NCBI RefSeq assembly: GCF_058153355.1
Contig: NZ_CM177019.1
Length of the DNA: 64,000 nucleotides
Reading direction: 5' to 3' (one strand)
This document shows positions 11,588 through 51,897 of this stretch, piece by piece. The notes under the pieces were generated by a model. That model did no database searches and was not told the DNA's origin. It saw only the letters and a program-made list of their open reading frames with translations. Numbering within the stretch: the first letter of the stretch is position 1; each line of letters begins with the position of its first letter. The translations under genes and the position numbers were made by a program.

Positions 11588-11776
11588 GCCGGATGCGGCG
11601 TGAACGCCTTATCCGGCCTACTAATCCGGTACCCATTGTAGGCCTGATAAGAGGCGTCAAGCGTCGCATCAGGCATGGTGCGCCGATTACCGGATGCGGC
11701 GTGAACGCCTTATCCGACTACCAATCCGGTACCCATTGTAGGCCTGATAAGAGGCGTCAAGCGTCGCATCAGGCAT
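11588..11776. repeat. Two tandem BIME units (REP pairs)
   Basis: gccggatgcggcgtgaacgccttatccggcctac and gtaggcctgataagaggcgtcaagcgtcgcatcaggc occur twice in tandem (~95-bp unit duplicated). Confidence 0.8.
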
Positions 11777-19877: not shown

Positions 19878-19917
19878 GTCATACCACTCGCCTGATTATT
19901 TTTAGCTATGTTGGATT

Positions 19918-19950
19918 TTGCCACGGTTTATACCGTGGCTTTTTTTTTGT
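19918..19950 (+). terminator. Rho-independent terminator after allDCE
   Basis: gccacggtttataccgtggc hairpin followed by T9. Confidence 0.6.
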
Positions 19951-39063: not shown

Positions 39064-39855
39064 TTAATGGAGAAGTGCTTTTTCTAATTCCGCTATTTTT
39101 TTCTTAACTAAATTGCTTAATATTTCATCATTAATCGAGTCTATCTCACTTTCAATTAATCTTATTTCAAAATATCTTTCTATGTTATATGCATTCTCAA
39201 ATATTTGATCTTTTTGTTTAGAGATCAGTTTAGTTGCAATACGGATATGTTCGTCATATGAAACTTCATCCTCTTTGCACGTTGAATATTTATCAGTAGT
39301 TGTATAATCCTGTGACCACATACCACCTTTTTTATTATCCCTATAATACCACTGAATATGAGACATTTCATGACATAAAGTAGCAACATGAGAATCCTTT
39401 CCCGTTACTGGATTTTTTTTGCCATCTCTATACTCAAATTTTGCGCCTATGTTAATTATATAGGGCATATCCTTACTTGGGCTGACGAATGCTGCAAATT
39501 CATTACAACCTGTATAATTTATAAAACTGCTCATTGTTAAATCATTAGCTATAATCATTAATCTTCTCACACCATCCATCATAAGAAATCTAGCATTCAT
39601 GCGCCTGCCTGTATTATGTCCATATTTTCTTATATTAACTTCCTTATTTCCTTTAACACCAAAGATCTTACTGAAATCATATTCCTCCTGTGCTCCCCAT
39701 CTCAAAAGATCATCTGCTCTTTTTATCAAAACCAACTTTTGTGCCTTACGAGCCTTATCAATCATTATTTTAAAATGATCAGTTATTTTTTGCTCTTTCA
39801 CACATTCTTCTGGCTCTGGCTTTGGTTGTCCAGAAGTTTGATTATTATCGTCCAT
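39064..39855 (-). CDS. HEXXH zinc-metallopeptidase-like protein (candidate VgrG-associated effector)
   Basis: ORF 39064..39891; contains CHEMSHIQWY (HEXXH); probable ATG at 39855 (MDDNNQ…) overlaps the vgrG stop by ~11 nt; AT-rich relative to vgrG. Confidence 0.55.
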   Translation of the reverse strand: MDDNNQTSGQPKPEPEECVKEQKITDHFKIMIDKARKAQKLVLIKRADDLLRWGAQEEYDFSKIFGVKGNKEVNIRKYGHNTGRRMNARFLMMDGVRRLMIIANDLTMSSFINYTGCNEFAAFVSPSKDMPYIINIGAKFEYRDGKKNPVTGKDSHVATLCHEMSHIQWYYRDNKKGGMWSQDYTTTDKYSTCKEDEVSYDEHIRIATKLISKQKDQIFENAYNIERYFEIRLIESEIDSINDEILSNLVKKKIAELEKALLH

Positions 39856-42250
39856 AGTGTCCTTCCATTGAGAGAAAATCATCATTCGCAAATAGCAACT
39901 TCACTTTAATTTCATGTTTGCTAGATACAAAAAAACGCTCTGTATACCCCTCTTCATCCGTTTCTCCGCGGGTCTGCGTGCCATCCTCAAAGAAGGCAAT
40001 GTAGCGGGTTTCTGAATACGGTATCCCGTCATCGTCTGTAAAATGGAACTGGAGAGTATATTTTTCAGGTTCATCCTCATCGTCACCTCGATCATCACCA
40101 CCACTTCCGGTCACGCAGTTCCCTCCAGAGTTTTCATTTTCTTCTCCGGAATCACTGCCATCACCACTCTTCTCATCCCCCAGTGTCTTCAGCACCGCCG
40201 GTTGCAGCGCCGGCACCGGCGCTCCCGGACTACCGCCGCTATTGAGATTGATTTTCGGCCCGACGATGTCCACGCCCCCTGAATGGATGACCACAAACGA
40301 GCCCCCCACCTTCAGGCTTATCCGGCTGCTGCTCTCCAGCACGATATCCCCGTCCACCTTTATCCCCAGCGCGCCACTCACCTTCTCCGCCAGGTCGCCC
40401 TTCACCTCCAGACTGTGCTTCCCCTCCACCAGACTGATATGGTTCCCCGTCGTCTTATGCTCCTGCTTCCCTTCCACCGTCACTTTACGGTCGTTTCTGA
40501 CATACAGGCCGTCATCGTGACTCACGCTCACCGTCCGGTCATTCGTCACCTTCAGCGTCTGGTCATTACGTACCGTTATGCGCCGGTCGTTCGCCACCGT
40601 GATACTCTGGTCGTGACCCCCTTCTTTTCTGGTGCCGACCTCAACCGTCTGCCCCTTCACCACCCTTATCTTCTGGTCGTTACCGATGGTCTCCGTATGG
40701 TCATGCTTCACGTCCGTCGTCCGGTCGTTAAGCACCTCCGTGTCCATGTTCTTCTGCGCGTGGATATACACCTGCTCACTGTCCGTCGCATCCTCGAAAC
40801 GCAGTTCATTAAAGCCGCTTCCTTTATAGGTCTTCGAGCGGATGGTCATCTGCGTCCGCGTGCCCGGTAAATCCCCCGGTGAACGGTTATCTTCATGGTA
40901 GGTCCGCCCCGTCACAATGGGCTGGTCCGGGTCGCCGTTCAGAAAGTCCACTATCACTTCCTGACCCACACGCGGTATCGCCAGATTGCCGAACCCCGGT
41001 CCCGCCCATGCCTGCGACACCCGTATCCAGCACGAACTCTCCTCCGTCATCCCGTGATAACGGTCCCAGTGAAACTTCACCCGTACCCGGCCATGCTCGT
41101 CGCAGAATATCTCCTCACCCTTCGGCCCGGTCACGATGGCACTCTGCGGGCCGTCCACCTTCGGCTTCGGCAGCGGCGCGTGACGCCACGTCCTGTCTGC
41201 CGGTATCACCTCAAACTGATTGCTCAGTGTCGTCCCTTCACCGTGACTCCCGTGCAGCGCCTGCGGCTGTTCTCCCCGCAGTGTGCTTCCCACAACCTGC
41301 CATTCCCGGTTCAGCGTCTCTGAGGGATGGCCCGTCAGCCGGAACCGCGTTCCCGGCCACAGCCGCGCCGTGTTACACACCCCGCTCGCCGTCTCCGCCC
41401 CGTTCCGCCACCCTTCCGTCTGGTAACGCGCAAAATCCTGGCCATGCTGCTCATCCTTGAAACGCCCCGGATAATCAAATATCTCGTACTGCGTTCCCTG
41501 CCCGTTCAGGCTCTCCCCGTCATGGCTGTAGTACCCCGGCCACCCCGGCGTTTTGAACGTATAATCCTGCGTCTCCACCGACGCCACGCTTATCTGCGCA
41601 CGGTAACGAAACTCACTGATGTACTCCGTCGTTCCCCCGGTCGTGGTATTCGGGTTAAACGCCAGCGCCCCCATTCCCGTCAGCCCCGCCACGTCATCAC
41701 ACACCGCCAGCTTCTGCTCCGGCCCTTCCTGACCGCAGCGCTCATAAAAGAAGATACCTTCCTCCGCCCACAGCCGGGTCAGGAATGCCAGGTCGCTCTC
41801 CCCGTACTGCACGCAGAACTCCCGCGCCGGGTGCGCCTCATAGAACAGCGGCATCCACGCCGTCACCCCGTTCTCTCTCAGAAGCTGTGCTGATATCGTC
41901 TGAATGTCCTGCTGCTGGAAGATACGGAAGTTCTGCCGTAACCCTGCCCGCCACAGCGGCGGGCTGATGCTCAGGGAATAACGCATCTGCCAGTCGTTGT
42001 TCTCACCGAGCTGCACCTCCGTCACGATACCGCTGACGTAACGCTGCGGGATATCACCCTGCCAGACCGTCAGCACCGCGCTCTTCTCCAGAAAATCCTC
42101 CGCCGTCAGGTCGGGCAGCCCGCTGGCGATATCCACATCCAGGATGAACGGCGTGCAGTGGTGCTGGTACAGACGGAAGCTCACCACCGCCGTCGCCATC
42201 TCCACGATACCGGCCACCGACAGCGTGAAACGTAATCCTTCTGCTGCCAT
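39845..42250 (-). CDS. vgrG: Type VI secretion spike protein VgrG with C-terminal extension
   Basis: ORF 39845..42283; N-terminus MAAEGLRFTLSVAG…AVVSF, gp5 OB-fold motif GPQSAIVTGPKGEEIFCDEHGRVRVKFHWDR, beta-helix repeats, then Gly/Asp/Glu-rich linker and ~80-aa terminal domain; no YD repeats. Confidence 0.85.
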   Translation of the reverse strand: MAAEGLRFTLSVAGIVEMATAVVSFRLYQHHCTPFILDVDIASGLPDLTAEDFLEKSAVLTVWQGDIPQRYVSGIVTEVQLGENNDWQMRYSLSISPPLWRAGLRQNFRIFQQQDIQTISAQLLRENGVTAWMPLFYEAHPAREFCVQYGESDLAFLTRLWAEEGIFFYERCGQEGPEQKLAVCDDVAGLTGMGALAFNPNTTTGGTTEYISEFRYRAQISVASVETQDYTFKTPGWPGYYSHDGESLNGQGTQYEIFDYPGRFKDEQHGQDFARYQTEGWRNGAETASGVCNTARLWPGTRFRLTGHPSETLNREWQVVGSTLRGEQPQALHGSHGEGTTLSNQFEVIPADRTWRHAPLPKPKVDGPQSAIVTGPKGEEIFCDEHGRVRVKFHWDRYHGMTEESSCWIRVSQAWAGPGFGNLAIPRVGQEVIVDFLNGDPDQPIVTGRTYHEDNRSPGDLPGTRTQMTIRSKTYKGSGFNELRFEDATDSEQVYIHAQKNMDTEVLNDRTTDVKHDHTETIGNDQKIRVVKGQTVEVGTRKEGGHDQSITVANDRRITVRNDQTLKVTNDRTVSVSHDDGLYVRNDRKVTVEGKQEHKTTGNHISLVEGKHSLEVKGDLAEKVSGALGIKVDGDIVLESSSRISLKVGGSFVVIHSGGVDIVGPKINLNSGGSPGAPVPALQPAVLKTLGDEKSGDGSDSGEENENSGGNCVTGSGGDDRGDDEDEPEKYTLQFHFTDDDGIPYSETRYIAFFEDGTQTRGETDEEGYTERFFVSSKHEIKVKLLFANDDFLSMEGHYGR

Positions 42251-42539
42251 ATAAACCCCATAGCTACCGCACTCATAGTGCAAACCATACGGGCTTATAA
42301 GAAAGGCTTAAGTGAGATATCTGCCAGATAGCAACTATTAGGAAAATATTTATATACATTTCATGAATACATTCATTAATACCGAGATGTTTTTGTCTAT
42401 ATAAACAGAGCAAGCTAACGTCCTCACTCCATGAAAGAAACTACGTAGGGGCCTTTCGGTCCATAACAACTTTTTCCCTGTTATATCCTGACGTTCTGGT
42501 CTACTGGTGTAGTCATGCATATTGCAACGTTCTACCCAT

Positions 42540-42675
42540 GGAAAGATAAATAAAGCCAGCTCTCCGCAAGGACTGAAGCGAGGTGCTTTCTGTCCATAGC
42601 TGCTTTTCGCAACTTACTCCTTAAGCCAACACTGAATTCCTTATGATTTGTCACAGTATGAACTTTTAATTTCAT
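42540..42675 (-). mobile_element. H-repeat (ISAs1-family) 3' remnant upstream of vgrG
   Basis: Nucleotide block matching 37704..37800; encodes …[31 protein letters not shown], homologous to the last ~40 residues of the 37710..38063 fragment. Confidence 0.5.
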
Positions 42676-42756
42676 ACATTGCTCTTTAGTCAATGGAAGA
42701 AAAATAAGCACCCTCTACCAAACGACACAAATAACCTGCAAATGGGAAATGACTTA

Positions 42757-43065
42757 TTACTTAGAAATTTGCAGAGATATAAACCACGAGATATATCCAC
42801 CTTTTGAGTTAACAGTTACAGACGTTATAACATTATCTTTTATCCAGATATCAACAAAAAAGTCCTTACCACAATAAAGACATTCACAATATCCTTCAGA
42901 GATAAAGTTGTCCTTAAGTTTATTTCTGGTTATATTAATAAGTTTATCGCCAGGATTGTAATGTACTAAATTTCCAGATGGCACAAACATCTCAATTTCA
43001 CACTGTCCTGACGTTCCACATCGAGGGCAAACGCACCATGCTTTCAATAAATCATAATTCGACAT
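42757..43065 (-). CDS. Hypothetical small protein with two CxxC pairs
   Basis: 102-aa ORF with CPRCG…CLYCG; AT-rich. Confidence 0.3.
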   Translation of the reverse strand: MSNYDLLKAWCVCPRCGTSGQCEIEMFVPSGNLVHYNPGDKLINITRNKLKDNFISEGYCECLYCGKDFFVDIWIKDNVITSVTVNSKGGYISWFISLQISK

Positions 43066-43115
43066 TATATTACCTTAATTTATTTCACATCAGCATCCCC
43101 CCTTGCAAACCACAA

Positions 43116-43472
43116 CTAAACTATTCCCATAAAATACAACGAGATAATTTTACTGTTAAACGTACATTCACAAAACTCAGGGGAAGAAAAATGACCATCA
43201 GTCAAAAATAAAGATAGTTTGCTTAGTGCGTAATCAATTGAATCAAGCGACAAGTATAATTTTATTACTAGTGAGTCCTGTATCAGGACATCATCTTCAT
43301 TGGGGGATTGTAAAAGTAATAAATTTTTATACGCTACAGGTGATCTGTTTTCCAGTCTAATAGGTTTGCTTGCTTCCGTCTCCAATAAACTATAAAGAGC
43401 ACAAACCATCTCATGAGCATCATCTTTATCAAAATATAAATGAAAACCGCCCAGAGATTTGTTAGCAATCAT
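43116..43472 (-). CDS. Hypothetical protein
   Basis: 118-aa ORF in AT-rich island; no recognisable motif. Confidence 0.3.
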   Translation of the reverse strand: MIANKSLGGFHLYFDKDDAHEMVCALYSLLETEASKPIRLENRSPVAYKNLLLLQSPNEDDVLIQDSLVIKLYLSLDSIDYALSKLSLFLTDGHFSSPEFCECTFNSKIISLYFMGIV

Positions 43473-43568
43473 AATACGTTTCTAAAGTTGATTTAAAATT
43501 TTGCATTTCATGCCCATCAAAAAATAAATATTTTTTAACTACAAAGCAAACCTCACAGCGCATAGCGG

Positions 43569-43784
43569 TTAATATTCTACCTTAACGACTTTCATTCCTC
43601 TTTCAATCATACCATTAATTAATTGATAATACTCTTTATCCCCTATATCTACTATTAGAACATGGCCCGTAAGTTCATTGATGAATAAATACTCAGGTTC
43701 CTCATCTGTACCAGCATTTGAAATAACCCAACCAGGATCAGTACCGTCTATAAAAAACTCCCACTCTTTAAAATTAACACTCAT
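43569..43784 (-). CDS. Hypothetical small acidic protein
   Basis: 71-aa ORF in AT-rich island; no recognisable motif. Confidence 0.3.
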   Translation of the reverse strand: MSVNFKEWEFFIDGTDPGWVISNAGTDEEPEYLFINELTGHVLIVDIGDKEYYQLINGMIERGMKVVKVEY

Positions 43785-43939
43785 TTAATCCTCCTTTTTA
43801 TACTCGCAAGAAAAGGAGAGTATCGTTTCTAACTCCGAAATAAAAGTATGATAAAAGACAGGACCTGACCTCATTTAATGTTATTTATCAATTCTTGATA
43901 GTTTTTGCAGATGCAGCGTAAACGCCTTATCTGGCCTAC

Positions 43940-46331
43940 ACAATCTTGCAAAATCAATATATTGCACGATCTGTCGGGTAGCAGCGATTCATTACTGTCT
44001 CGCCGCCCCCTAAGAACGGTACGTGCGAGTTTCCCCGCATACCGCTCAAGCCTTTATAAGCCTCCACCTTGTGGGAGACCAGCGTCATTACTATGTAGTT
44101 GTCGATGGCAGTTGGGATGGAGTAGGACTAAATTGCTCACATCATCGCTACCGCCAAGAGATTTCTTGAGCAAATGATGAACATTCCATCCTGTATCGCG
44201 ATTAATCGGTTGCTCACATAAAGGGCAGCGCGATCCTTGCCTTTTCCATATAGCGAGAATCCTTTTCTGCCCCTGTTGGGATTTCTTCCATGAGTAGTCC
44301 AGCCTTCTTTCGAAGTATGTTTCCCACTCGGGATCATATGGATTTGCCGTTCCCTTTATTTTTATATAGCGATTAATATGGATGTCGCTGGCCCGGGACA
44401 GAACATATTTCCTACCCTCCGGATCGACTCCATAAAATCGACCATGACACATTTTTATTGTCGTGTGGTACTTTCGGAAGATCCATCTCCGGCCTTTGCC
44501 GGGATGTCTCCTTCTGCACCACTGCCAGATTTTGCGCCAGATTTGGTTGTCGACATAGTTAAATGTCTCTGCCGATGCTACATGTTGGTGATAGTTTGCC
44601 CACCCGGTGATGATTGGATTAAGCAGATTTATTAGCACCCATGCAGGAACCGTTCGGTTACCTTCAATAGTCTCTCTGATCTTGCTAAGAAATTGTTTAA
44701 CGTTTTTCTTGGCTGGTCTGATTATGAGTTTTCTACCGAAGCGTCGGACGTGCTGCCCAAGGAAATCAAATCCGTCAGTAATGTGAGTGATGACCGTTTT
44801 CTCTTCGGATAACGTCAGCCCTCTTTCTGCAAGAAATGATTTCACCAACGGAAGAACATTCTCCTCCAGAAGTTCTTTCGACTTTCCGGAAATGATGAAA
44901 TCATCAGCATACCGGACGAAGTGAACCTGATGTTTCCTGAATGTTTTTGAGCGTTTCGGACCAAAGCGATTTTGCAGCAGTCTTTCCAGTCCATCCAGGG
45001 CCATGTTTGCCAGAACTGGAGATATGATTCCTCCCTGGGGTGTACCCGAGAGAGTTTTGCTGAATATGCTTTTTTCGATGATCCCGGCTTTCAACCAATT
45101 ACGGAGTATTTGCTTGTCCATAGGAATATTTTCAAGCAGCCACTCGTGGCTAATGTGTTCAAAGCATCCTTTAATATCGCCTTCCAGAACCCATTTCGAG
45201 GCGTTCCGGGAACTATACATATTACATACCTGTTGAATGGCGTCAGCCGTACATCGCGCTGGTCTGAAACCATAACTGTTGTGATCTGCATTAGTTTCCG
45301 ATACAGGCTCCAATCCCAGCAGATGCAGGGCCTGCATTGCCCTGTCAAGCATGACGGGGATTCCTAATGGTCTTTTCTTGCCATTAGATTTGGGTATAAA
45401 AACTCTTTTTAGCGGTAGGGGCTTGTACCCTTTTCGCCTGAGTTTGAATATCGCTTCCCATTTTGATTCTGGAGTACTCCAGATTTGACCATCAACTCCG
45501 GGGGTTTTACGCCCGCTATTTTCCGTAACTCGTTTCACCGCCAGTGCTCTGGCGCTGAATGAGCGAACCAGCAATCGTTGCAATCTACCGACTGTACGCC
45601 ATTGCTGGTTACATGCCGCCTTTGCGATTCTTGTCTGTATGGTTTTAACGTGTTGATGGCATTTCTTCCAGTTAATGGAATGCCAACCTTTTCCGTTGAT
45701 GACCGCAGTTACATTGTTAGATGTAATTTTCATACATGTCATCCAAAGAAACCTTCGCAGATGTTTCGCAATTAAAGACCAGATGGAAGTCAGCACGGTT
45801 TCCCGTTAAGGCAAATATTGAACCTCTATCCGCACGATTACAGTCCGGCTTTCGCTTTTTCCATCCTCCTTTACCCGCATTCTCATCAGTTTGCCTTACG
45901 GTGCCCCTGCCACTAGGGCGAGAATTCGGGCTTACCAAGTTCCGACCAACATACAAAGAACGGGTTAGGTTCTGTCTATCCGCCGGGGGAGTTATTGTCC
46001 ATGTATTCCCACTACGAACAGGAATAGCCTTACCCCTTACCTTTTGGTGCAAGCCTATCAGCATCTTTGGCTCGTTCTCTGTTACGACGTTTAACGACAG
46101 TTCACTATGTTAACCATACCGCCCAGCCTAGCGCTCTCGCCGCATGATGCTTGTAGCGATCAGGTTTTCTCACGATTAACTGAAGCAATATTTGCTAAGC
46201 TACATTGTCCCAAGGGCTTCAGACAGAGCCGTTACCAGCTTTGCCTGCCTCAGTAGGCTACAACTAATGGAATAGTTGGTTTTATATAAATAATTTATCA
46301 AAACAATATGTTGGACGACTTCTTGTCGCAC
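43940..46331 (-). mobile_element. Group II intron (about 2.4 kb; 3' boundary approximate)
   Basis: Minus strand begins GTGCGAC at 46331; ~535 nt precede the ORF (room for domains I-III); RT/maturase/HNH ORF in domain IV; domain V-like agcggtatgcggggaaactcgcacgtaccgttct at ~44012-44047; short hairpin after it (candidate domain VI). Confidence 0.8.
44054..45796 (-). CDS. Group II intron-encoded reverse transcriptase/maturase with HNH endonuclease
   Basis: 580-aa ORF: RT palm motif FVRYADDF, maturase-like region, C-terminal HNH (CPLCEQ…NVHHL…HPNCH). Confidence 0.85.
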   Translation of the reverse strand: MLTSIWSLIAKHLRRFLWMTCMKITSNNVTAVINGKGWHSINWKKCHQHVKTIQTRIAKAACNQQWRTVGRLQRLLVRSFSARALAVKRVTENSGRKTPGVDGQIWSTPESKWEAIFKLRRKGYKPLPLKRVFIPKSNGKKRPLGIPVMLDRAMQALHLLGLEPVSETNADHNSYGFRPARCTADAIQQVCNMYSSRNASKWVLEGDIKGCFEHISHEWLLENIPMDKQILRNWLKAGIIEKSIFSKTLSGTPQGGIISPVLANMALDGLERLLQNRFGPKRSKTFRKHQVHFVRYADDFIISGKSKELLEENVLPLVKSFLAERGLTLSEEKTVITHITDGFDFLGQHVRRFGRKLIIRPAKKNVKQFLSKIRETIEGNRTVPAWVLINLLNPIITGWANYHQHVASAETFNYVDNQIWRKIWQWCRRRHPGKGRRWIFRKYHTTIKMCHGRFYGVDPEGRKYVLSRASDIHINRYIKIKGTANPYDPEWETYFERRLDYSWKKSQQGQKRILAIWKRQGSRCPLCEQPINRDTGWNVHHLLKKSLGGSDDVSNLVLLHPNCHRQLHSNDAGLPQGGGL

Positions 46332-46378
46332 TCGTAGACCAGATAAGCGTAGCGCATCAGGCAATCTAACGCCTGTCA

Positions 46379-48793
46379 TCACCCCGCAAACTGCCTGAAC
46401 AGCGCCTTCCCTTTTACCAGTCGCGCGCCCAGCCAGCCGCCGAAAAGTGACAGCAGCAGCGCACCGCTACACGGCAACACAATCCACAATCGCCAGTCTG
46501 GCTCCCACGGGAAATCAAACACTTTCGATTGCAGTACCGCCAGCACCGTTTCCGCACCAATTGCGGCCACCAGGCCGGATACAAACCCGAGCATGGCGAA
46601 CTCACACCACAATGTCGTGCGCAGCAGTTTTTTGCCCGCACCGAGAGTGCGCCACACCACCAGCTCCTGATGACGCTGACGCATTCCCACCTGCACCTGT
46701 GCCAGCAACAGCAACATACCGCAGGCGGTGACCAGCACCACCATCACTTCCAGCGCCCGACTTACCTGCTCCAGCACCTGACCGACCTGTTTTAAAATCG
46801 CGCCAATGTCTAACAGGCTAATGGTCGGGAACTGGCGGTTGAGTTGCGTCAACATGCCGTTGCCATTCTCCCAGCGGAAACTGGTAAGCCAGCTCTGCGG
46901 TTGCCCGTCTAATGCCCCTTCAGGGAAAATAAAATAGAAATTAGGCCGCAGACTTTCCCAGTCCACTTTGCGCAGGCTGGTCACTTTAGCGCGGAACTCC
47001 TGGGTATCGCCCATAAAAGTCACGGTATCACCGAGGGCAACGTTTAAGCGTTTCGCCAGCCCCTCTTCCATCGACACTTCATCGGCTTTTGGCGGCCAGT
47101 TACCGGCGACAATCGGATTATGATCGGGCCGCGTATTTTGCCAGGTAAGATTGAGTTCGCGATTGAGCGCCTCATCTTCATTGCCTTCTGTCGGCTTGCC
47201 GTTAATCGCCGTCAGTCTCGCCCGCACCACCGGATAAAACGATTCCGGGACTATCTGATGTTCCGCGAGGAACGCTTTTAGCGGTGCTACCTGTTCTGTG
47301 GCGATGTTAATTAAAAAGTAGTTCGGGCTTTCTGGTGGTAGCTGCTGCTGCCAGCGGTCGAGCAGATCGCCACGCAGCACCAGTAGCAGTGCCAGCAGCA
47401 TAAAGGAGAGCGAAAATGCCGAAAGCTGGCTTAACGTTGACCACGGCTGACGTAACAGGCGGCTAACCGCCAGGCGCAGAGGCAGCGATTTCAGCGTCAT
47501 GCGGCGAAGTACATTCAGCAGCATCCAGCCCAGCACACCGCACAGCAAAGCCAGTACTACCGCGCCCGCCAGCACCGCCCAGAGCAGCATACTGCCGCCC
47601 ATCAGTCCGGCGAGCAGTAGCACAACCACCACACTGACAATCGGCAGATAAAACTTGAGCGGCCAGACGTTCGCTACCACATCATTTCGTAATACCCGTA
47701 AAGGCTGCGTTGCCAGCAACAGTCGGTATGGTCGCAGCCCTACCAGCAGCGAGATGACGGTCATGGTGCCGAGCGCCCACAGCCACGGCCAGAGGCTGGC
47801 AGGCGGTAGTGCGGCTGGCAGCACGGGTTTGAGAAGTACCATCAACACGTTTTCGAACAACAGACCTATAGCCCCGCCGGTAACGGCTGAAAGTACCAGC
47901 ACCATCAACCACTGACCGACAATTAACTTACGCAATTGCGCTCGCCTTGCTCCCAGCGTTTTGAGGATCGCCACCAAGTCGTAGCGACTGCGACAGTAAT
48001 GATTCATCGCCACCGCGACCGCCGCCACCGCCAGCAGCAAGGTCAGAAGCGCCGAAAGCAGCAGGAACTGTTGCGAGCGTTCCATTGAGCGCCCCAGCGC
48101 GCCTTCGTCCTGTTCCAGACCGTACCAGCGTTGTTCGGGTTTAAGCTGGGGTAACAACCATTTCTCATAGCCGTCGAGCTGGTTCTCGCTGCCGCCGAAT
48201 TTATAGCGCCAGGTGACCCGACTCCCCGGCTGCACGGCTCCGGTTTTATCAACATCCGCCAGATTCATCATCAGGCGTGGGGCTATCTGGAAAGGATTAA
48301 AACCGGAATCCGGTTCCTGAATCACTTCTCCGGCAATCCGCAAGGTGGCATCGCCCACGTCAATGGTGTCGCCCGTTTTCAGGTTAAGCAGCGCCATCAG
48401 GCGTGGGGCCAGCAATACGCTGCCCGCCTGCGGTTTCAGGCCAGGGGGATTAGTTTGCAGATCGCCATACATCGGGTAGATATCATCCACCGCTTTGACG
48501 TTCGCCAGCTGCGGTGTGTCGCCTGCAAATGTCATGGTGGCGAAAGTCAGCTGCTTGCCGACTTTCAGGCCGCGCTTTTGCGCTTCCTCCAGCCACGCTT
48601 GCGGCACTTCGCGCGAACTGCGCAACGCCCGATCGCCCGCCATAAACTCCCGGCTTTGCTGGCTTAAGCCCTTCTCCATGCGATCGCTGATATTGCCCAG
48701 CGCCAGCACACAGGCCACCGCCAGGCTAAGCGCCAGCCAGACAATTAACAGCGACGGCGAGCGCCATTCGCGCCAGAACCAACGTGCAATCAT
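46379..48793 (-). CDS. ybbP: ABC transporter permease (FtsX-like, duplicated)
   Basis: 804-aa polytopic ORF overlapping the ybbA stop. Confidence 0.85.
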   Translation of the reverse strand: MIARWFWREWRSPSLLIVWLALSLAVACVLALGNISDRMEKGLSQQSREFMAGDRALRSSREVPQAWLEEAQKRGLKVGKQLTFATMTFAGDTPQLANVKAVDDIYPMYGDLQTNPPGLKPQAGSVLLAPRLMALLNLKTGDTIDVGDATLRIAGEVIQEPDSGFNPFQIAPRLMMNLADVDKTGAVQPGSRVTWRYKFGGSENQLDGYEKWLLPQLKPEQRWYGLEQDEGALGRSMERSQQFLLLSALLTLLLAVAAVAVAMNHYCRSRYDLVAILKTLGARRAQLRKLIVGQWLMVLVLSAVTGGAIGLLFENVLMVLLKPVLPAALPPASLWPWLWALGTMTVISLLVGLRPYRLLLATQPLRVLRNDVVANVWPLKFYLPIVSVVVVLLLAGLMGGSMLLWAVLAGAVVLALLCGVLGWMLLNVLRRMTLKSLPLRLAVSRLLRQPWSTLSQLSAFSLSFMLLALLLVLRGDLLDRWQQQLPPESPNYFLINIATEQVAPLKAFLAEHQIVPESFYPVVRARLTAINGKPTEGNEDEALNRELNLTWQNTRPDHNPIVAGNWPPKADEVSMEEGLAKRLNVALGDTVTFMGDTQEFRAKVTSLRKVDWESLRPNFYFIFPEGALDGQPQSWLTSFRWENGNGMLTQLNRQFPTISLLDIGAILKQVGQVLEQVSRALEVMVVLVTACGMLLLLAQVQVGMRQRHQELVVWRTLGAGKKLLRTTLWCEFAMLGFVSGLVAAIGAETVLAVLQSKVFDFPWEPDWRLWIVLPCSGALLLSLFGGWLGARLVKGKALFRQFAG

Positions 48794-51812: not shown

Positions 51813-51897
51813 TGTAGGCCTGATAAGACGCGCCAGCGTCGCATCAGGCATCCGCGCATAGCCGCCGGATGCGGCGTGAACGCCTTATCCGGCCTAC
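51813..51897. repeat. BIME (pair of inverted REP units)
   Basis: gtaggcctgataagacgcgccagcgtcgcatcaggc … gccggatgcggcgtgaacgccttatccggcctac. Confidence 0.8.

Follow-up and report, generated by a model that had tools for sequence, protein, structure and literature searches.

A group II intron of plasmid hok-family toxin genes within a chromosomal REP unit downstream of ybbP: probable recent retrotransposition into a look-alike site

Several described systems bear on the group II intron that we report here from a 64,000-nucleotide (nt) stretch of contig NZ_CM177019.1 (NCBI RefSeq assembly GCF_058153355.1; hereafter the window), where it interrupts a repetitive extragenic palindromic (REP) unit downstream of the gene ybbP. 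The EcI5 intron (E.c.I5) from plasmid pO157 of Escherichia coli O157:H7: this is the same kind of plasmid-borne element, with a IIB1 RNA, an intron-encoded protein (IEP) of class CL1 and an endonuclease (En) domain. Its target geometry is also alike, with intron-binding site (IBS) 1 at -6 to -1, a 2-nt gap, IBS2 at -13 to -9 and IBS3 at +1 (PMC8643678). However, its site on pO157 (...CTGGTGCTCGAAT/; here and below a slash marks the insertion point) is not in a hok gene, and no REP insertions are reported for it. EcI5 also obeys a strict Watson-Crick pairing at -14 between IBS2a and exon-binding site (EBS) 2a (PMC8643678), a rule not evident in the family described here. The CL1/IIB introns of Thermosynechococcus elongatus: these provide the closest solved IEP (the reverse transcriptase (RT) of 6ME0/6MEC) and are reported to have spread within genomes through EBS/IBS divergence to new sites (PMC2882425); they differ in their cyanobacterial host and in their targets, the new sites of our family being a pre-existing dispersed repeat. 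The Ll.LtrB-type ectopic events: Ll.LtrB and other group II introns retrotranspose to sites matching mainly IBS1 and IBS2 without a full homing site (PMC3522654), but such events are scattered, whereas here three of four chromosomal sites occupy the same position of one repeat family. The introns homing to insertion sequences (IS): E.c.I1, E.c.I3, E.c.I4 and E.c.I9 of E. coli (PMC3522654) likewise reside in repeated, non-essential, mobile host sequences of Enterobacterales; their hosts are transposase genes, in contrast to a type I toxin gene and REP tails. The group IIC introns: these too insert just 3' of palindromic intergenic stem-loops, but they read DNA structure and lack EBS2 and En, while the window intron has both and reads sequence. 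The REP-targeting IS: REP units are imperfect palindromes of ~35 nt ending in CTAC, highly repeated and often arranged in inverted pairs, and elements such as IS1397 and ISKpn1 insert into them. REP units and bacterial interspersed mosaic elements (BIMEs) serve such elements as dispersed, selectively neutral landing sites (PMC1525189); the IS are DNA transposons with a transposase, unlike the window element, a retroelement guided by RNA-DNA pairing.

We consider it highly probable that the window intron is an intact, recently mobile IIB1/CL1 element which moved from an IncF-type plasmid into a look-alike chromosomal REP unit by base-pairing retrotransposition. The intron and its parts are as follows:

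43973..46331, minus strand: group II intron, 2359 nt, GTGCGAC...CTACCCGAC, IIB1 RNA with CL1 IEP (Rfam and empty sites)
46132..46279, minus strand: part of ribozyme domain I, RF02012 (group II D1-D4-7; Rfam)
44054..45733, minus strand: IEP, 559 amino acids (aa) plus stop, with RT, maturase/X and HNH (Pfam domains)
43973..44049, minus strand: domains V and VI (DV, DVI), RF00029, with the DV helix at 44047..44014 (Rfam)

That a group II intron lies here, as a preliminary description from the letters alone had proposed, is borne out by all three of its components. The RF02012 match (112.5 bits against a gathering score of 34, E 1e-23) covers model positions 1-151 of 151, the RF00029 match (65.5 bits against 40, E 2e-11) is full length, and the IEP open reading frame (ORF) sits between them. 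DV and DVI are canonical, the outcome on which that description had made its proposal depend, and the architecture of domains I-IV is supported by the RF02012 match. The ends, 5' GTGCG at 46331 and 3' ...CCCGAC at 43973, match the GUGYG/AY consensus and are fixed to the base by the intron-less alleles of E. coli GF4-3 and N96; the 5' end is exactly where it had been placed, and the domain V that it gave at ~44012-44047 coincides with the DV helix. A bulged A at ~43979, 7 nt from the 3' splice site and picked by eye, is a candidate branch point. The IEP, an ORF already read as intact with conserved motifs, has the Pfam domains RVT_N, RVT_1 (E 2e-40), GIIM and HNH and a YADD motif visible in its sequence; its length is counted from an ATG, the mechanical ORF start being a GTG 21 codons upstream, and equals that of the IEPs in three other copies (L002, L004, L005; labels L001-L042 denote other loci or contigs compared with the window).

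The best PDB match of the IEP is 6ME0, the T. elongatus CL1 RT (E 2e-187), and the window IEP shares 53% identity over 552 aa with the EcI5 IEP of pO157; these matches place the intron in the IIB1/CL1 class as judged by sequence. Identity with EcI5 as a species was rejected: the intron is IIB1/CL1 but not EcI5, since the IEPs are only 53% identical and the ribozyme DNA is similar in patches of 68-89% (89% in D5/D6, ~72% in D1). Group IIC introns have no EBS2 and no En domain, are short (~1.9 kb) and depend on a hairpin at the target. Membership of this group was likewise rejected, on a covarying EBS2, the presence of HNH, the length of 2359 nt and home sites without a hairpin.

The host sequences around the intron are:

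46379..48793, minus strand: ybbP, ABC transporter permease, an 804-aa ORF named via the annotation of homologous E. coli loci
46334..46362, minus strand: host REP unit 1 (gcctgatgcgctacgcttatctggtctac), uninterrupted in the empty alleles L001 and L013 and fitting the REP tail pattern
43940..43972, minus strand: BIME linker, now the 3' exon (agatcgtgcaatatattgattttgcaagattgt), contiguous with REP unit 1 in the empty alleles
43907..43939, minus strand: host REP unit 2, inverted (gtaggccagataaggcgtttacgctgcatctgc), from the sequence, the empty alleles and the tail pattern

The 68 nt 3' of the intron match a single place in 1125 E. coli chromosomes, and in GF4-3 this match directly follows ybbP and reads ...gcctgatgcgctacgcttatctggtctacga/agatcgtgcaatatattgattttgcaagattgtgtaggccagataaggcg...; N96 has the same uninterrupted junction, and the part common to both intron-less alleles is ...GGTCTACGA/AGATCGTG.... 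Since these alleles have them uninterrupted, the two REP units belong to the host, where they make up a BIME, and the insertion point falls 2 nt past the CTAC tail of REP unit 1. The flanks are genuine REP/BIME sequence: where 0.11 occurrences of the tail CTTATCNGGYCTAC would be expected in the window there are seven, E. coli genomes carry the 45-nt uninterrupted junction at a median of at least 29 places each, and the uninterrupted tail-to-tail pair forms a long hairpin on folding (-54.8 kcal/mol, z -6.9). The preliminary description was therefore right to set the intron between two inverted REP units inside a BIME, and the comparison with empty sites assigns these units to the host and not to the intron, the alternative that it had left for such a comparison to decide; its range of 43908-46363 does contain the intron but takes in the two host REP units as well. 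It also had the intron in the orientation of ybbP and beginning ~48 nt past its stop, and we measure 47 nt between the two. No terminator or promoter consensus is found between the ybbP stop and the intron.

The plasmid relatives of the intron point to where such an element would come from. Among 5426 complete E. coli genomes two carry it, both as plasmid copies inside a hok gene, while PLSDB holds 20 full-length copies, 77-99.6% identical, on plasmids of Escherichia, Salmonella, Citrobacter and Enterobacter; most of those examined are on IncF-type plasmids. The closest, CP057208, is 99.6% identical to the window intron (10 of 2359 nt differ). Flanks were read for seven PLSDB copies and for copies recovered from draft assemblies and metagenomes. 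Nearly all of these interrupt a hok-family toxin gene at the equivalent codon, ...A-Y-E(GA/A)-x-x-K-stop, the exceptions being three look-alike ectopic sites. There are two clear sublineages: the hok-type, in the psiB-psiA-hok leading region, has the site T-TCATG-GC-TTACGA/ATCCGG and the guides EBS2 CAUGA and EBS1 UCGUAA, or UCGUAG with a G-U pair. The srnB-type, in a hok paralogue adjoining finO/RepFIIA, has the site A-CTCTG-GC-CTACGA/AGCACG and the guides EBS2 CAGAG and EBS1 UCGUAG. A Salmonella copy has EBS2 CAUAA adjoining the exon TTATG. The window copy, with EBS2 CAGAG and EBS1 UCGUAG, belongs to the srnB sublineage. The explanation that we favour includes, as one of its parts, that the ancestral homing site would be the Glu codon (GA/A) five codons before the stop of plasmid hok-family type I toxin genes.

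Some features of these copies may be recorded here. The commonest srnB-type variant (L003, L017, L018) has a C-to-T change at intron nt 2261 that accompanies an IEP five residues shorter at the C-terminus (554 aa versus 559 aa), the window copy having the full-length form. In several plasmid copies (L002 2893-3039; L004 1364-1534; L007 and L008 1355-1534) annotated Hok/Gef ORFs cross the 5' splice site and end in ...AYE followed by CDKKSSNILF*, with the last four codons replaced by intron sequence; in them the intron parts the Hok/Gef ORF from the 3' end of the hok mRNA. pCRST030_1 (L002 1-202) has a second, different ltrA (group II intron RT) ~3 kb upstream of its interrupted hok gene.

The guides of the window copy and their target, pairings that the preliminary description had named as a way to fix the boundaries, could both be located:

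46332..46337, minus strand: IBS1, CTACGA, at -6 to -1 and ending at the insertion point, complementary to EBS1 UCGUAG
46012..46017, minus strand: EBS1, UCGUAG, intron nt 315-320, in the loop of a TATTCC/GGAATA stem (alignment of copies and EcI5)
46077..46083, minus strand: EBS2, CAGAG, intron nt 251-255 (46081..46077), with the candidate EBS2a A249 (46083; alignment of copies and EcI5)

Across the copies IBS1 and EBS1 covary (CUACGA with UCGUAG, UUACGA with UCGUAA), as do EBS2 and IBS2 (CAGAG with CTCTG, CATGA with TCATG, CATAA with TTATG); EBS1 (nt 315-320) and EBS2 (nt 251-255) are assigned because these guides covary with exon sequence. At the window site IBS1 pairs at 6/6 positions and IBS2 at 4/5, and position +1 (IBS3) is an A, at 43972, as in every site seen. 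IBS2 (ATCTG, -13 to -9) and the first four bases of IBS1 (CTAC, -6 to -3) are carried by the 3' part of REP unit 1. The resulting target, T-ATCTG-GT-CTACGA/AGATCG, agrees with the srnB site at 11 of 13 positions between -13 and -1, as well as at +1, +2 and +5 to +7. On sequence grounds, then, base-exact insertion, covariation of guide and target, and mimicry of the home site by a REP tail are established.

Further chromosomal copies were found in public assemblies via the exact IEP sequence and near-identical variants. Copies in the rsmC-leuV BIME differ from the window intron by 1 nt (L014) and by 7 nt over the 2150 nt present in the contig (L028); the junction is ...CGTCTTATCTGGCCTACGA/AGGGCTAACG, and its empty site is confirmed in KE55. 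Copies between ybaL and gsk (L018, L019) have the junction ...CGCCTTATCTGGCCTACGA/ACCGACG, and many complete genomes contain the reconstructed empty site at 100% identity. A copy in the coding sequence of ptrB (L027 ~2600-2902), ...AACTGATCTACGA/, is in a site other than a REP; there the near-identical intron interrupts ptrB (protease II, named from the translated flank) in sense orientation at ...DKLIYE(GA/). Counted by site, then, the srnB sublineage occupies four distinct chromosomal positions, three of them REP tails whose 18-nt junction, CTTATCTGGYCTACGA/A, is identical in the window, L014/L028 and L018/L019, the introns being 1 to 10 nt from the window copy. The srnB site and the rsmC and ybaL-gsk REP sites have in common the 14-mer TCTGGCCTACGAAG. 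At ybaL-gsk the occupied tail lies on the outside of two REPs arranged head to head, and therefore it is the REP tail followed by GAA that matters, not BIME architecture. The candidate form of the target can be written as:

Candidate REP-tail target form: CTTATCTGGYCTACGAA

The window has seven REP tails: three read TCAGG and two TCCGG, both variants with a base at -10 that would not pair with A252 of EBS2, and TCTGG followed by GAA is present at the occupied tail alone. The hok-type sublineage was never seen in a REP in ~15 contexts, only in hok genes or ATGGCTTACGA-like ectopic sites. Both results favour targeting by sequence. Other ectopic sites of the family outside REPs are those of L005, L032 and L042.

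Taken together, the history that we favour would run as follows. The window copy would belong to a sublineage retargeted to the srnB paralogue, with the site A-CTCTG-GC-CTACGA/AG, a site that one REP variant reproduces with its 3' tail when GAA follows (T-ATCTG-GY-CTACGA/AG). The intron ribonucleoprotein would then enter the REP strand by reverse splicing, at a point exactly 2 nt past CTAC, and reverse transcription would complete the insertion. In molecular terms, a lariat-IEP particle would pair EBS1, EBS2 and EBS3 with the top strand and reverse-splice between A-1 and A+1; HNH would place a nick a few bases downstream in the bottom strand, and target-primed reverse transcription by the IEP would copy the intron. 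The last two steps are proposed by analogy with EcI5 and Ll.LtrB; the mechanism is established for IIB1 and En-positive introns (PMC8643678, PMC3898094). Because the intron is co-oriented with ybbP and no terminator consensus intervenes, it is plausible that read-through from ybbP transcribes it and that splicing restores the BIME in the RNA. The same process would have placed near-identical copies at the two other REP tails.

The fixed distance of 2 nt between each of the three REP insertions and the end of the palindromic unit could also suggest that the REP/BIME hairpin itself is recognized and that insertion follows just 3' of it, as in the group IIC introns with terminator or attC stem-loops; moreover, DNA folding gives a hairpin of -10 to -11 kcal/mol for two of the three REP 5' exons. 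However, the intron with its covarying EBS2, HNH and CL1 IEP is not of the IIC type, hairpins are absent from the srnB and hok home sites and from that in ptrB, IBS2 would be locked up within a REP hairpin, and five other REP tails in the window, which lack TCTGG...GAA, are unoccupied. A hairpin is not required, since at the srnB, hok and ptrB sites the 5' exon folds no better than shuffled sequence. We therefore regard such structure-directed targeting as very improbable. Almost as improbable, though marginally less so, is a single chance ectopic event, in which the REP context would be a coincidence uninformative on target preference. Ectopic sites outside REPs do exist (ptrB in L027, and those of L005, L032 and L042) and chromosomal copies are very rare; against this stand the three of four distinct chromosomal srnB-sublineage sites at REP tails with the same 18-nt junction, and the 14-mer that the REP junction shares with the home site.

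The single copy in the window would be in keeping with an immobile relic, that is a fixed, decaying insertion inherited only vertically. Yet the ORF is full-length with its YADD and HNH motifs, the ribozyme models are matched over their whole length, a copy at another locus is the same at all but 1 of 2359 nt, intron-only contigs that recur (L024 in 18 samples) suggest multi-copy genomes, and the intron is missing from related genomes that have the same island downstream; a relic thus appears highly unlikely. The preliminary description had suggested that the intron may still be mobile, and this possibility is strengthened by L014, at another chromosomal locus and just that 1 nt different. Intron-only contigs of this kind recur in draft assemblies, GCA_018981665.1 and SRR34880567 being among their sources, and both they and chimeric contigs are expected from a genome with two or more copies. 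One contig of 8674 nt (L020, GCA_042204225.1) joins a plasmid srnB 5' flank to a chromosomal gsk 3' flank across the intron; this is probably an assembly chimera, implying a plasmid and a chromosomal copy in one genome. In the species-representative genomes a 36-mer from the intron 5' end had no match, and a 20-mer matched only two unrelated introns of metagenome-assembled genomes.

Several observations weigh against retrotransposition from a plasmid into REP look-alikes as we have set it out. At -13 there is a mismatch between the REP sites and EBS2. The pairing rule of EcI5 for EBS2a and IBS2a is inconsistently followed: A249 would pair with T-14 in the REP sites but is opposite A-14 in srnB, and G249 faces a T in hok. 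Given this inconsistency the rule does not serve to rank srnB against REP as target, and the target rules are only partly understood. A chromosomal copy is present in 0 of the 5426 complete E. coli genomes, though thousands carry empty targets; with targets so abundant and chromosomal copies so rare, the REP route is either inefficient or very recent, its targets being poor or only recently opened. Lastly, independent events may be fewer than copies, since the same site with slightly different introns could reflect vertical descent.

In the wider locus, ybbP is followed by ybbA and tesA, named via annotated homologous E. coli loci. Among 5418 complete E. coli genomes none matches the ybbP-tesA flank at more than 98.1% identity; judging by sequence the window comes from E. 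coli or from a very near relative, in either case one that the complete genomes do not include. Downstream of the BIME (39845-43900, minus strand) lies a type VI secretion cargo island, with an 812-aa VgrG/TssI ORF (39845-42283) and small ORFs; in related genomes it includes M35 metallopeptidase genes, and only three complete E. coli genomes match it at 96-97% identity. N96 has the same type VI secretion (vgrG) island after its uninterrupted BIME. Other strains carry dinQ-mnmH in this position, the K-12 counterpart of which we take to be the rhsD region. In GF4-3 (L001 3173-3256) a gene annotated as the type I toxin DinQ follows the ybbP BIME among repeated 'gctagatgaggactg' segments, an arrangement absent from the window. 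Rfam matches to naRNA4 (REP325, a nucleoid-associated RNA) at 11641-11719 and 51817-51894 (minus strand) mark other REP/BIME clusters, intron-free and with tails of the TCAGG and TCCGG variants. The enterobacterial small RNA STnc480 is matched at 19884-19950 (minus strand, 86 bits).

As an element the intron is unexceptional within a class that is well known, and it would move by the textbook mechanism. We found no description in the literature of the intron, of its hok/srnB specialization or of its REP insertion, the curated group II intron database lying outside that search. The specialization and the repeated use of REP tails thus appear undescribed in the literature searched, and the intron may already be named in the Zimmerly database, with E.c.I8 as a CL1 candidate. 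More tentatively, we propose that the srnB sublineage may have opened the REP family as a chromosomal landing pad through RNA-DNA pairing to TCTGGYCTACGA/A, which would be an early stage of plasmid-to-chromosome invasion with possible multi-copy proliferation; we see this as nearly, though not quite, an even call. If so, it would be the first retroelement known to colonize REPs and the first intron family specialized on type I toxin genes, and its sites should include REP tails well in excess of what the proportion of these among genomic TCTGGYCTACGAA-like 13-mers would predict.

On the current view, group II introns of bacteria persist by residing in mobile or dispensable DNA, and chromosomes lose them quickly. 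This case would present the step of escape from plasmid to chromosome at base resolution: a few guide nucleotides change between paralogous toxin genes, with the side effect of a match to a subset of REP repeats, which thousands of the complete E. coli genomes checked have in uninterrupted form. As a practical point, draft assemblies collapse the intron into intron-only or chimeric contigs. The family thus may offer a natural system for asking what limits the spread of an intron when targets abound, how strict the target rules of IIB1 introns are at -13 and -14, and what follows for the host when a BIME or the mRNA of a hok/srnB toxin is interrupted.

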